Shown one piece after another: positions 25,576-28,679 of a stretch of 64,000 nucleotides of DNA. A program made the translations under genes and the position numbers. This DNA comes from Escherichia coli (GTDB taxonomy: Bacteria > Pseudomonadota > Gammaproteobacteria > Enterobacterales > Enterobacteriaceae). The notes beneath the pieces were generated by a model that saw nothing but the letters and a program-made list of their open reading frames with translations, made no database searches and was not told the DNA's origin. The stretch lies in the NCBI RefSeq assembly GCF_003334405.1, contig NZ_QOWM01000005.1; one strand, given 5' to 3'. The first letter of the stretch is position 1; the number at the start of each line of letters is the position of its first letter.

Positions 25576-26454
25576 TTACGCCAAATTTACAGAGAAGATT
25601 TCCTCGAGCATTGCCCCCGCCAGACGCTGCGCTGAACAGAGTCGTGGCATCCCCAGCGCGACAGTTTGCCAGCGTTGGGTCACTGACCAGCAAACGGGTT
25701 GTTTATCTGCCGTGGTCCACTTTCCCAGCCAACTTAAAAAATCAGCATGCTCCCCGCCCGTCGGAACGGTCGAAGAGGCAAACCACTGATGGTAATAGTG
25801 ACGCGTGGTCGGTGCCGCATTGATACTCTCTGCCAGATGTTGTGTCGCTTTCTCGAGCAAATCACCCAGCAACAACGCCACCGCTTGCGGGCTTCCCAGA
25901 CGGCAGGCATCGCCAAATGCCCCCCAGCGCAACTCCTCCAGAACGATAAAACAGCGCCCAGGCAACGACCAGGCGTTATACGCCCCAGCACGCCAGCGGG
26001 TAAAAATTTGCTCGCTCTGATCACCTGCCTGCACCAGTAGGCCTCGTTGCGTTAACGCCTTTTCCTTCCAGCGACAACGGGCTGAAAACCACTCATACAA
26101 GGCGGCAATTTGCTGGGGGAGCTCCGGGAAAGCAGAGTGCTGGCGGTGATCCATTTTTTGCAGCAGCGCCAGATGCTGCGCGATCTGCGTCAGTGCCAGA
26201 TGACCGGGATCCAGCATCGACGCCAGTTTTTCCACCAATGTCAGACGCAGGCTAAGCGGCGCATTTAACATGCCGCCGTTCGTCCATGTCTGAAGCTGCA
26301 CACGCGAAAGAAGTTCCTGCATCAGTCGTTCACGAAACTGCTGCTGATGGGCTTGTGGAAGGCGGGCATCATCACCCTGCGCCAGATCCACTAAAAAGCG
26401 GGGATAAACCGACTCCAGCACGCGACCGGGGCCGTCAAGTAACGTCTTGGTCAA
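25576..26454 (-). CDS. yjcZ: YjcZ (292 aa), partner protein of the dynamin-like CrfC
   Basis: 292-aa ORF immediately downstream of and overlapping crfC by 4 bp. Confidence 0.85.
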   Translation of the reverse strand: MTKTLLDGPGRVLESVYPRFLVDLAQGDDARLPQAHQQQFRERLMQELLSRVQLQTWTNGGMLNAPLSLRLTLVEKLASMLDPGHLALTQIAQHLALLQKMDHRQHSAFPELPQQIAALYEWFSARCRWKEKALTQRGLLVQAGDQSEQIFTRWRAGAYNAWSLPGRCFIVLEELRWGAFGDACRLGSPQAVALLLGDLLEKATQHLAESINAAPTTRHYYHQWFASSTVPTGGEHADFLSWLGKWTTADKQPVCWSVTQRWQTVALGMPRLCSAQRLAGAMLEEIFSVNLA

Positions 26455-28679
26455 TATCGTTCTGCCGTGAAAAGTGTTTGAATATCATCGCGTAACAGCT
26501 GGGCGTCGGTGTAAATCCAGCCGTGAGTCATCACAGTCTGCTGCAATTGCTGCTGCATCAGCCTGACCACCGATTCATTTTGTTGACGCAGAGCCAGACT
26601 TTCGCGTAAACGCGTCTGTAATTCCGTCAAACATGAAGCGAACTCAGCGAAAAAAGTATTCATGCCTGCCGTAACAGATTCATCGACCTGCTCTGCCAGA
26701 ACTTTAGCCATTTGTTGGCAATAGAGATCGACTTCTGCGCTTAATGCTCGTTGCAACACACTGTAATCAACCGTTTCTGTCGGTGATTTCTCATTTCCCC
26801 GTCCCCAGTCGGGCTGATTCAACCAGCGCGAAAAAGTCTCACGCACAACGCCTAAACGCGTGCTCTGCTCGTCCGTTGCTTCCTGGCGCGAAATGACTTC
26901 ACTGAACAGCTGGCGAGTGTTGAAGTGGGGAACTACGCCGTGAAAAACAGGAAAATGAAACCCAGGACGAAACCCTGACTCGCTCAATTCCATTTTGACT
27001 TGTTGCTCAATGGGGCGAATAACATCGGTTAACACCCGGCAAAGGGTGGATTCAAGCTCGGCAAAACGCAGCGTAAAGTCGCGACTGATGGTGTTCTGCG
27101 CCGTCTGTAACAGTGTCTCACAGCGGGTACGAATCTCGCTTAACGGCTCCGAATCATCCTGAAACAAGGCGGCTAACTGCACCTTCAGCGCATCTTGCTG
27201 TTGACGCAGAAAGTGGTTGGCGGAGGTCAGGGCCAGCTCGATTTCATGTTTAATCTCGCCGCTCACCTGCGCCTGATTGAGTTGCAATAGCTGCAAACTT
27301 TCTTCGATCTGGTGGATATTTTGCCGCAATTGTTCACAAGCGACGTTTAACCCGTGCGCACGAAAATCCAGGTATTCCCGCGCCTGCTGCGCGTAATTCA
27401 ACAGTTTATGCGCGGCAGATCGCAGAGCATACAACGAGGCGTTAGCGTAAGCGGCATGAAGCAACGCCTGAATTGGCTGGGCGAACAGCGAATCTTCCCA
27501 CAACTGATCGGCAGCATGACGAATATGTTCGAGGTCCGCCAGATCGGCATGACGCCAGCGCCTGCCAAGCGCGGCATGGGCAAAATCTTCCACCCAGCGT
27601 TGTTGCTCTGGCGGTGGTAACTTACCGTTGTTGGCTAACTCATAGCGCGCCCGATTCGCCAGGTAGCCCCACATCGACGACACCGGAAATATCTGCTGTG
27701 GCGTAATACAGCCTTTCATCAGCGTCCCGGAAATCAGTGCCCGCACCTGGTCGGCGTCGTCACTGTTACGATCCTGTTGATCGAACTTATTGACCAGCAC
27801 GTACAGCGGCACCGATTGCCCCACCGCCAAAATCGCCTCACGGACCTCTTCATCGGAGATCGATTTCAGTTGCGTATAATCCAGCACCGCCAGTACCGCC
27901 GAGGCGCGTGCCAGCTGCTGGTTAAGCATTTTTTGCAGATGCGGTTGCCCGGCTTCATTTGGCCCGGGGGTATCCAGTAACGTCAACTGACCGGGATAAC
28001 TCTCCAGCCCCGCTAGATGGACAAACTCCACTTCAATCACGGGAATATGCTCAATGGCGGCGTAAGCAGAAAAAGGAAAATCGACGTCCAGCGCCTTCGC
28101 CAGTCGCACTAAATCATTCAAACTTTTCAGACAATGAAAAATAGGCTGGGCACCCAGATAATATTTTTCGAAAGCGACGCCATTTTCGATCCGCTGCATA
28201 AGCGCACGCATATCTTTATCTATTTCCAGCACATCGGTCAGATGCTTAATATCGCAATCACGCAGGCGCTGTTGTAATTGTTGAATTAAACAATCGATTG
28301 GCGCGACATGTGAAAAATGCAGTACCGGTTCCTTTTGCCCGGGCGTATGGCGAATAAGCGTCGGCAGCGCAGTCATTGGGCGATTACGATTAGGCAGAAC
28401 CTCCGTACCAACAATGGCATTAATGGTGGTTGATTTCCCTGCTTTCATGGTACCGACAATTGCAAGCACCATTTCCAGTCGGGAAATTTTACGCAACTCA
28501 TTATTCAGCATCGCGTGACGTTCGGCGATATTAGGCTGACTCCAGGGTAAAGCCAGTTGTGGCGCGTCGTCTCCGGGTACAGAGAGAGGCATTTTTTCCA
28601 GTAACTGCAACTGTTGGCGAGAAAGCTGTAACAGGCGTTCAGCCTCCTGACTTAACTCATACAGGGTCTGTGTGTACAT
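26451..28679 (-). CDS. crfC: Dynamin-like GTPase CrfC/YjdA (742 aa)
   Basis: G1 P-loop GTMKAGKSTT near the N-terminus, long coiled-coil-rich C-terminal region; length and context match. Confidence 0.9.
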   Translation of the reverse strand: MYTQTLYELSQEAERLLQLSRQQLQLLEKMPLSVPGDDAPQLALPWSQPNIAERHAMLNNELRKISRLEMVLAIVGTMKAGKSTTINAIVGTEVLPNRNRPMTALPTLIRHTPGQKEPVLHFSHVAPIDCLIQQLQQRLRDCDIKHLTDVLEIDKDMRALMQRIENGVAFEKYYLGAQPIFHCLKSLNDLVRLAKALDVDFPFSAYAAIEHIPVIEVEFVHLAGLESYPGQLTLLDTPGPNEAGQPHLQKMLNQQLARASAVLAVLDYTQLKSISDEEVREAILAVGQSVPLYVLVNKFDQQDRNSDDADQVRALISGTLMKGCITPQQIFPVSSMWGYLANRARYELANNGKLPPPEQQRWVEDFAHAALGRRWRHADLADLEHIRHAADQLWEDSLFAQPIQALLHAAYANASLYALRSAAHKLLNYAQQAREYLDFRAHGLNVACEQLRQNIHQIEESLQLLQLNQAQVSGEIKHEIELALTSANHFLRQQQDALKVQLAALFQDDSEPLSEIRTRCETLLQTAQNTISRDFTLRFAELESTLCRVLTDVIRPIEQQVKMELSESGFRPGFHFPVFHGVVPHFNTRQLFSEVISRQEATDEQSTRLGVVRETFSRWLNQPDWGRGNEKSPTETVDYSVLQRALSAEVDLYCQQMAKVLAEQVDESVTAGMNTFFAEFASCLTELQTRLRESLALRQQNESVVRLMQQQLQQTVMTHGWIYTDAQLLRDDIQTLFTAERY

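Follow-up and report, generated by a model that had tools for sequence, protein, structure and literature searches.

The crfC-yjcZ locus of Escherichia coli as the core-genome rdcA-rdcB operon, and its relation to a mobile dynamin-YjcZ-patatin cassette

The locus described here, within a 64,000-nucleotide stretch of Escherichia coli DNA (the window), is with a probability of roughly 0.85 the core-genome operon rdcA (crfC/yjdA)-rdcB (yjcZ), which encodes a pair of proteins activating DgcE and in which rdcB is expressed in two ways. The gene pair, the interaction of its products and their signalling role are already known, and the initial annotation of this DNA was correct but ordinary. Little is therefore at stake for crfC-yjcZ itself, since its genes, interaction and role are published and RefSeq already names both genes. 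What is added here is the conservation of the pairing and of the gene overlap, the conservation of an internal sigma-28 promoter, a glutamine (Q41) confined to E. coli, and the paralogy of the pair to a mobile cassette; the promoter and Q41 provide two testable handles. The two genes and their junction are the following:

26451..28679, minus strand: crfC (yjdA, rdcA) coding sequence, ATG start, 742 aa, a soluble dynamin-like GTPase
25576..26454, minus strand: yjcZ (rdcB) coding sequence, TTG start (not ATG), 292 aa, an all-alpha partner protein, PF13990
26451..26454, minus strand: TTGA overlap of the yjcZ TTG start and the crfC TGA stop, within ...CGA TAT TGA / TTG ACC

A 742-aa reading frame with a P-loop and a 292-aa frame overlapping it by 4 nucleotides had been annotated from the letters, and both are present as described on the minus strand. 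Their names also hold: the first product matches the NCBIfam CrfC equivalog, the second matches Pfam YjcZ, and RefSeq annotates crfC and rdcB with the same 4-nt overlap in a genome that is 100% identical over the 3.5-kb region. Of 5426 complete E. coli genomes, 5418 contain this region, and both products match curated families; thus, the reading frames are not chance. Downstream of yjcZ in the window lies proP, and 80 core-type loci are all syntenic and chromosomal, located between phnA and proP. Compared with the RdcA/RdcB (YjdA/YjcZ) DgcE activator system of E. coli K-12 (PMC6510439), the genes, lengths and order are the same, and K82 and T103 are present; there is no difference, and the window simply contains that operon.

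The call of a dynamin-like GTPase was borne out by the domain search, which returned a Pfam Dynamin_N match accompanied by the G1-G4 motifs:

27849..28466, minus strand: Dynamin_N (PF00350) G-domain match, residues 72-277, profile E 7.3e-18
28428..28454, minus strand: G1/P-loop GTMKAGKST, residues 76-84, including K82 (from translation)
28371..28373, minus strand: G2 catalytic threonine T103 (from translation)
27963..27974, minus strand: G3 motif DTPG, residues 236-239 (from translation)
27780..27791, minus strand: G4 motif NKFD, residues 297-300 (from translation)

The P-loop, T103, DTPG and N297/K298/D300 are invariant in 17 paired homologues, including paralogues at about 31-33% identity, and the equivalog model NF007368 covers residues 1-742 of 742 with 1597.2 bits against a cutoff of 1146. 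In the AlphaFold model, the G domain of CrfC extends from residue 69 to about 350, and the long helical region that had been noted behind it appears as a stalk of three helices, one of 53 residues and two of about 100; the tip region (566-637) is predicted with low confidence. CrfC thus has the layout of a dynamin-like protein (DLP), a large protein with a G domain followed by an elongated helical stalk, and resembles solved DLPs in this respect. In sequence, a PDB search with CrfC found no closely related solved structure, the best match being BDLP over about 50 residues of the P-loop region (E 1.7e-6), and the similarity to SynDLP (7zw6/9em9), Nostoc BDLP (2j68), DLP1/DLP2 (5owv), IniA (6j72) and LeoA (4aur) is limited to that region. 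Citing Ozaki 2013, PMC6510439 and PMC6374313 report that CrfC has GTPase activity and forms oligomers. In contrast to the solved DLPs, RdcA is reported to be soluble (PMC6510439), and what it is published to act on is a signalling enzyme, not a membrane for remodelling. The CrfC/RdcA literature describes the protein as devoid of a membrane-binding motif (PMC6510439, PMC6374313).

The partner also sets the pair apart from the Campylobacter DLP1/DLP2 pair and other solved DLPs: instead of a second DLP, it is an all-alpha protein of 292 aa for which no fold relative is known, and a PDB sequence search with YjcZ gave nothing better than E 0.4. Pfam YjcZ (PF13990) matches its residues 21-287 to model positions 1-272 of 272 at E 1.3e-143, and its AlphaFold model has a pLDDT of 77 and a pTM of 0.79. 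Two motifs mark the protein:

25909..25956, minus strand: YjcZ family hallmark motif RCFIVLEELRWGAFGD, residues 167-182 (from alignment and translation)
25630..25689, minus strand: C-terminal motif WSVTQRWQTVALGMPRLCSA, residues 256-275, conserved and for the most part invariant among core-type orthologues

Within the first motif, R167, C168, E173, E174, L175, W177, G178 and G181 are invariant, even in the patatin-linked paralogues described below. The second is modelled at pLDDT 41-64 in YjcZ alone and at 68-88 in a CrfC-YjcZ fusion model, in which 30 glycines join the two proteins and which used a paired alignment of 17 rows and reached a pTM of 0.65; the rise of pLDDT across YjcZ residues 220-270 in the fusion is confounded by an alignment that differs from that of the monomer run.

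The idea of a partner gene and a complex agrees with published work, in which the RdcA-RdcB interaction was detected by bacterial two-hybrid assay (PMC6510439). RdcA self-associates and binds both RdcB and the membrane-embedded MASE1 domain of DgcE (Pfiffer 2019, PMC6510439), and the contacts of RdcA with RdcB and with DgcE are based on two-hybrid assays (PMC6510439). DgcE-dependent c-di-GMP production needs both RdcA and RdcB; it reduces motility and switches on CsgD, curli and cellulose (PMC6510439). An independent transposon screen also recovered rdcA, rdcB and dgcE as low-c-di-GMP mutants (PMC13031359). Activation of c-di-GMP synthesis by RdcA depends on GTP hydrolysis (Pfiffer 2019, PMC6510439). 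RdcA-K82A, designed from the GTP-binding lysine K44 of dynamin, is still functional, but RdcA-T103D fails to activate DgcE and loses DgcE binding; its template, dynamin T65D, binds GTP and hydrolyses it more than 100-fold slower (PMC6510439). Since K82A works while T103D does not and no longer binds DgcE, GTP-bound RdcA is taken as the OFF state. RdcB would serve as an obligate adaptor or as a modulator of the nucleotide state of the DLP, possibly as a GAP, a release factor or a scaffold.

The organization of the two genes is strongly conserved. A CrfC homologue lies directly upstream of the YjcZ homologue in all 80 enterobacterial species loci that hold YjcZ, and in 75 of the 80 species the yjcZ start still overlaps the crfC stop by 4 nt; the overlap reads ATGA everywhere except in Escherichia, which has TTGA. 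One could suppose that crfC and yjcZ are mere neighbours, the overlap being an accident of compaction that marks no functional unit. ATGA/TTGA overlaps are indeed common in bacterial operons, and yjcZ has its own promoter (PMC4183435). However, adjacency and order never break in the 80 species, the pairing persists in paralogous cassettes of distant Proteobacteria at about 30% identity, and published work reports both a two-hybrid interaction and mutant phenotypes that are identical and non-additive (PMC6510439). This supposition is exceedingly improbable and already effectively refuted. Because the overlap is kept so widely, translational coupling of crfC and yjcZ is plausible on the sequence.

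For the expression of rdcB, we propose two routes. First, on the long crfC-yjcZ mRNA, ribosomes may terminate and reinitiate at TTGA; the TTG start and the weak Shine-Dalgarno sequence of rdcB argue for dependence on upstream ribosomes. Second, a shorter FliA-dependent transcript may provide extra RdcB and would tie it to the flagellar regulon. The promoter features that bear on these routes are the following:

26679..26706, minus strand: intragenic FliA (sigma-28) promoter TAAAGTTC-N11-GTCGATGA inside crfC, an exact match occurring once in the window
28680..28950, minus strand: AT-rich intergenic region upstream of crfC (from sequence)
28948-28921, minus strand: sigma-70-like site TTGAAA-16-AATAAT, a consensus match only

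From the end of the -10 element of the FliA promoter, it is 225 nt downstream to the start of yjcZ. That this promoter within crfC drives yjcZ is known from sequence and from ChIP-seq/RNA-seq (PMC4183435), and FliA-dependent reporter activity has been recorded for it (bioRxiv 10.1101/188474). Our comparison shows that it is conserved at the nucleotide level across genera, at synonymous sites: when 414 conserved columns are ranked by synonymous conservation, the codons of the -35 and -10 elements fall at the 90th-98th percentile. The sigma-28 promoter separately transcribes yjcZ; thus, the overlap is no proof of 1:1 stoichiometry. Deletion of yjcZ in a wild-type background left motility unchanged (Fitzgerald et al., PMC4183435), which counts against the reading preferred here. 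A FliA promoter upstream of crfC itself was considered and rejected, as Fitzgerald et al. call that prediction incorrect (PMC4183435), and a consensus scan for terminators and upstream promoters gave counts near the shuffled expectation.

The pair also has relatives outside the core genome. A cassette of a dynamin, an RdcB-like protein and a patatin-like phospholipase has a gene order like that of crfC-yjcZ, with junctions that overlap by 4 nt, and is present in about 45% of E. coli genomes as well as on plasmids and in other Proteobacteria. It is carried by genomic islands and conjugative plasmids, where WYL regulators and toxin-antitoxin genes lie next to it. In full-length comparison, the cassette dynamin shares 33% identity with CrfC, and the RdcB-like protein of the cassette shares 31% with YjcZ; the N-terminal helix is likewise conserved between the cassette and the core pair, as is the YjcZ motif RC..LEEL.WG.FGD. 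The locus in the window differs in that it is a fixed part of the core genome, borne by neither island nor plasmid, and does not carry the third gene (patatin); none of the 80 core-type loci has a patatin gene. It also differs at the tip, where the mobile DLPs carry a basic, Trp-rich motif, TRRRR..WG..C..DWGWE.Y, that has degenerated in core CrfC, with the strongest erosion in Escherichia. In a midpoint-rooted tree of YjcZ proteins, the core-type clade is sister to all others, which does not separate loss of patatin from its gain, and a tblastn search of phage genomes, for which the island YjcZ-like protein was the query, gave no match.

This paralogy, which spans the full length of both proteins, could mean that the core pair is still a dynamin module for membrane remodelling or surveillance, possibly anti-phage, with the activation of DgcE as a side effect. 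The company that the cassette keeps on islands and conjugative plasmids would suit such a role; a 2026 paper names the cassette a putative dynamin phage-defence system (PMC12922286), and the literature consulted links phage defence to further bacterial DLPs, namely DynA and Eleos LeoA/LeoBC. However, the core-type loci are uniformly syntenic, chromosomal and free of patatin, the tip motif has decayed in core CrfC, and RdcA is described as a soluble protein (PMC6510439); no defence phenotype has been reported. With Eleos LeoA/LeoBC and B. subtilis DynA, CrfC has the dynamin superfamily as common ground, and membership in Eleos ('Dynamins') was rejected, the PADLOC matches being weak and partial (LeoBC E 5.8e-6, LeoA E 3.2e-5) and YjcZ having none. 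A retained membrane module is thus very unlikely.

Less improbable, though still tentative, is that RdcA-RdcB is a domesticated, patatin-less descendant of the mobile module. YjcZ-family adaptors would then link the nucleotide state of the DLP to an effector directed at the membrane, and in the Enterobacteriaceae the MASE1 domain of DgcE may have replaced the phospholipase in the effector slot. The mobile module itself might be an uncatalogued membrane-attacking system, possibly acting in abortive infection or defence. The dynamin-YjcZ-patatin cassettes would be a more interesting object of study than the core pair.

Another function has been assigned to CrfC. Ozaki et al. 2013 and Taniguchi et al. 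2019 (PMC6374313) describe the same protein as a clamp-binding dynamin homologue with a role in nucleoid equipartition, which counts against the reading preferred here, and the motif named for this activity is present in the window:

28545..28559, minus strand: published beta-clamp-binding motif 41-QLALP (motif named in PMC6374313; translation)

On this account, the primary role of CrfC would be to bind the clamp, keep sister replication forks together and position nucleoids, with YjcZ being incidental. As summarised in PMC6374313, Ozaki 2013 found that CrfC oligomers bind the clamp via 41-QLALP and that the Q41A and delta-crfC mutants give rise to anucleate cells; the NCBI family name, 'clamp-binding protein CrfC', follows the same view. 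The position of the motif fits as well, as it sits in a predicted disordered linker (residues 30-47), a low-pLDDT loop, as expected of a short linear motif. However, among 79 aligned sequences only the E. coli row carries Q41, whereas the partnership with YjcZ is universal (80/80 species loci). Pfiffer et al. also note that the in-vivo data on replication were obtained with plasmid-borne expression, that clamp binding does not depend on GTP and that the knockout grows without defect (PMC6510439). A primary clamp-binding role is therefore unlikely, and the DgcE-activating operon stays our preferred reading; clamp binding is better regarded as a possible moonlighting activity specific to E. coli. 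Indeed, no other sampled species conserves the glutamine of the motif, so that clamp binding, if real, would seem confined to E. coli: position 41 of CrfC is P in both Escherichia sp. E1V33 and E. whittamii, and other genera have V/I-x-P-L-H-F-S.

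The crfC-yjcZ locus is already known, since it is the rdcA(crfC)-rdcB(yjcZ) operon, whose function has been published. The earlier observation is confirmed, and its interpretation is essentially right: the 742-aa and 292-aa open reading frames lie where described, on the minus strand, with the 4-bp overlap reported for them.

26451-28679, minus strand: crfC CDS, ATG start, 742 aa
25576-26454, minus strand: yjcZ CDS, TTG start, 292 aa
26451-26454, minus strand: TTGA stop/start overlap, holding both the crfC stop and the yjcZ start because the crfC frame reads ...TAT TGA and the yjcZ frame TTG ACC

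RefSeq annotation agrees, as crfC and rdcB are annotated as CDSs with the identical overlap in a 100%-identical RefSeq genome. The P-loop noticed in the larger protein spans residues 76-84 of the CrfC translation, which also contains T103 (G2), DTPG (G3) and NKFD (G4). The assignment to dynamin-like GTPases holds in domain searches: Pfam Dynamin_N matches CrfC (E 7e-18), and the CrfC score with the NCBIfam equivalog 'clamp-binding protein CrfC', 1597 bits, exceeds the 1146-bit cutoff. PF13990 covers YjcZ end to end (E 1e-143).

The window comes from the E. coli chromosome; basS, proP, yjdM/phnA and phnC-D lie in the neighbourhood. Of 5426 complete E. coli genomes, 5418 carry the 3.5-kb crfC-yjcZ region, nearly always as a single chromosomal copy. 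In strain TOE17 (NZ_CP069093.1), an IS1 family transposase is annotated inside the region, and the match falls into two pieces, otherwise 100% identical. Some E. coli assemblies encode proteins of 438-442 aa (P0020-P0022) with the Dynamin_N and YjcZ Pfam domains in one chain; these are 94-97% identical to YjcZ over 67-72% of its length, and are probably internal deletions joining crfC' to 'yjcZ. Between yjdM/phnA and yjdN, positions 29430-29809 hold 3.8 tandem copies of a 100-bp unit (97% identity) with REP-like palindromes (GCCGGATAAGGCGTTTACGCCGCATCCGGC); this array, from which two identical spurious 66-aa ORFs arise, appears to be a typical E. coli BIME/REP cluster.

The literature on CrfC, to which the initial annotation pointed, describes two roles. 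First, yjdA (crfC) and yjcZ were recovered as suppressors of the pdeH motility defect, phenocopying dgcE (Girgis 2007, as cited in PMC6510439). The names rdcA and rdcB date from Pfiffer et al. [quoted passage not shown] In that study, RdcA K82A complements, while T103D neither complements nor binds DgcE; thus, GTP-bound RdcA was proposed to be inactive, with the fall of GTP in stationary phase as the proposed input. Independently, rdcA, rdcB and dgcE emerged from a transposon and FRET-sorting screen published in 2026 (PMC13031359). Second, the same protein, as CrfC, is reported to bind the beta-clamp via 41-QLALP and to promote nucleoid equipartition (Ozaki 2013, as summarised in PMC6374313), a role that Pfiffer et al. 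regard as possible moonlighting (PMC6510439).

The overlap had been taken to imply a stoichiometric complex. The 4-nt overlap is real, but a FliA (sigma-28) promoter within yjdA drives yjcZ (Fitzgerald et al. 2014, PMC4183435), so the overlap alone does not imply 1:1 output. [quoted passage not shown]

26679-26706, minus strand: intragenic FliA promoter, located by its published sequence, single occurrence in the window

From the end of its -10 element to the downstream yjcZ start is 225 nt. The promoter is kept as TAAAGCTTT-N11-GTCGAT in most genera, third codon positions included, and codons K659 AAA, A660 GCT, V665 GTC and D666 GAT lie between the 90th and 98th percentiles for synonymous conservation across 414 conserved columns, a ranking uncorrected for phylogeny. 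Such conservation suggests selection for the promoter within the crfC coding region. Just 3' of the -10 element lies an ATG in the crfC frame (M673, window position 26663); speculatively, it might open a short upstream ORF on the short transcript that feeds termination-reinitiation at TTGA.

Scanning one genome per species returned YjcZ relatives in 111 species, of which the best 80 were kept; their labels are Enterobacteriaceae-type, bar three that are generic or mislabelled. Among these best 80 of 111, the CrfC homologue ends exactly at the YjcZ start in every locus, and the two genes overlap by 4 nt in 75: ATGA in 72, counting two Atlantibacter-type loci with the start corrected by one codon, and TTGA in three Escherichia loci. 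In the other five, the genes overlap by 1 nt or stand 2 nt apart. The 4-nt overlap is ancestral, and the weak TTG start an Escherichia-specific change. The conserved dual expression logic, overlap plus internal sigma-28 promoter, is worth carrying forward. Synteny holds across all 80 loci, 78 of which have phnA and 69 proP, and none of these core-type loci has a patatin gene. One record titled 'Chryseobacterium sp. 18061' (L067, CACSKA010000007.1) holds an enterobacterial-type crfC-yjcZ locus whose junction is nearly identical to that of a Pluralibacter sp. MAG (L063); mislabelling or contamination of the assembly is the probable cause.

Also worth carrying forward is the limitation of the clamp motif (28545-28559, minus strand) to E. 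coli: Q41 occurs in the E. coli row only among 79 aligned sequences, the position being P in other Escherichia species and the motif V/I-x-P-L-H-F-S in other genera. Escherichia CrfC lacks 36 residues after 512 and 8 after 34 that are present in all other genera.

A PDB sequence search found a closely related solved structure for neither CrfC nor YjcZ. The predicted CrfC architecture is taken from an AlphaFold model of a CrfC-linker-YjcZ fusion (17 paired sequences; pLDDT 75.9, whole-chain pTM 0.65).

Residues 2-29: N-terminal helix
Residues 30-47: disordered linker with QLALP
Residues 69 to ~350: G domain
Residues 400-505: stalk helix, ~100 residues
Residues 513-565: stalk helix, 53 residues
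Residues 566-637: tip, low confidence
Residues 639-741: stalk helix, ~100 residues

Residues 1-17 of the N-terminal helix (MYTQTLYELSQEAERLL; 28629-28679, minus strand) are nearly invariant among orthologues at ~60% identity, and the pattern M-H/Y-x-x-x-I/L-x-x-L-x-x-E-A-x-R-L is kept in patatin-linked paralogues at 33% identity; this segment may mediate interaction or assembly. YjcZ alone is predicted to be all-alpha (pLDDT 77, pTM 0.79), and fold relatives were found only within its own family. Its region ~220-270, including the nearly invariant motif WSVTQ.WQ.VALGMPRLCSA, rises from pLDDT 41-64 when YjcZ is modelled alone to 68-88 in the fusion, a comparison confounded by different alignments. 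The rise is compatible with packing against CrfC, and we do not count it as a demonstrated interface; the evidence for physical CrfC-YjcZ contact is the published two-hybrid result (PMC6510439). The biochemical role and fold of RdcB are worth carrying forward.

Outside the window, a paralogous mobile dynamin-YjcZ-patatin cassette likewise merits carrying forward. Among 1.84 billion representatives, a profile search picked out 263 YjcZ-family clusters, with named members in Pseudomonas, Methylomonas, Gallionella, Allochromatium, Thiodictyon, Pectobacterium, Burkholderia, Acinetobacter and others. Nearly all distant loci sampled carry a cassette of Dynamin_N (~800 aa), YjcZ (~300 aa) and Patatin (~355 aa), joined mostly by 4-nt overlaps, with the patatin catalytic motifs GGGxxG, GxSxG and DGG intact. 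Seven loci (L082, L083, L086-L090) have all three genes, and two cut by contig ends (L081, L085) are consistent with this arrangement.

L086:7361-11714: mobile cassette of E. coli MS 200-1, within a CP4-44-like island, adjoining antirestriction, yeeS/T and cbeA/cbtA genes

Of the 5426 complete E. coli genomes, 2445 have the cassette as an accessory element; it also occurs in diverse Proteobacteria, and is carried by 44 plasmids of E. coli, Klebsiella, Enterobacter and Citrobacter (matches include H26-H39); the phage genomes searched yielded none, and PADLOC 2.0 did not recognise it. Its only literature mention is as 'putative dynamin phage defence': in January 2026, such operons were noticed in E. 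coli MP1, strongly induced in a lysogen, and so named (PMC12922286). Mobile and core proteins are 33% (dynamin) and 31% (YjcZ) identical. The mobile dynamins have a basic, Trp-rich tip motif, TRRRR..WG..C..DWGWE.Y. Core CrfC shows a degenerate version of this motif, the most degenerate being that of Escherichia. The core-type YjcZ sequences group as a single clade in the YjcZ tree, the rooting of which is compatible with patatin loss or gain. On a 1.44-Mb metagenomic contig, L084:5001-7630 encodes a 532-aa DUF3944-YjcZ fusion followed by a patatin, adjoining parE/parC and with no dynamin upstream; thus, the YjcZ-patatin link can occur without a dynamin-like protein.
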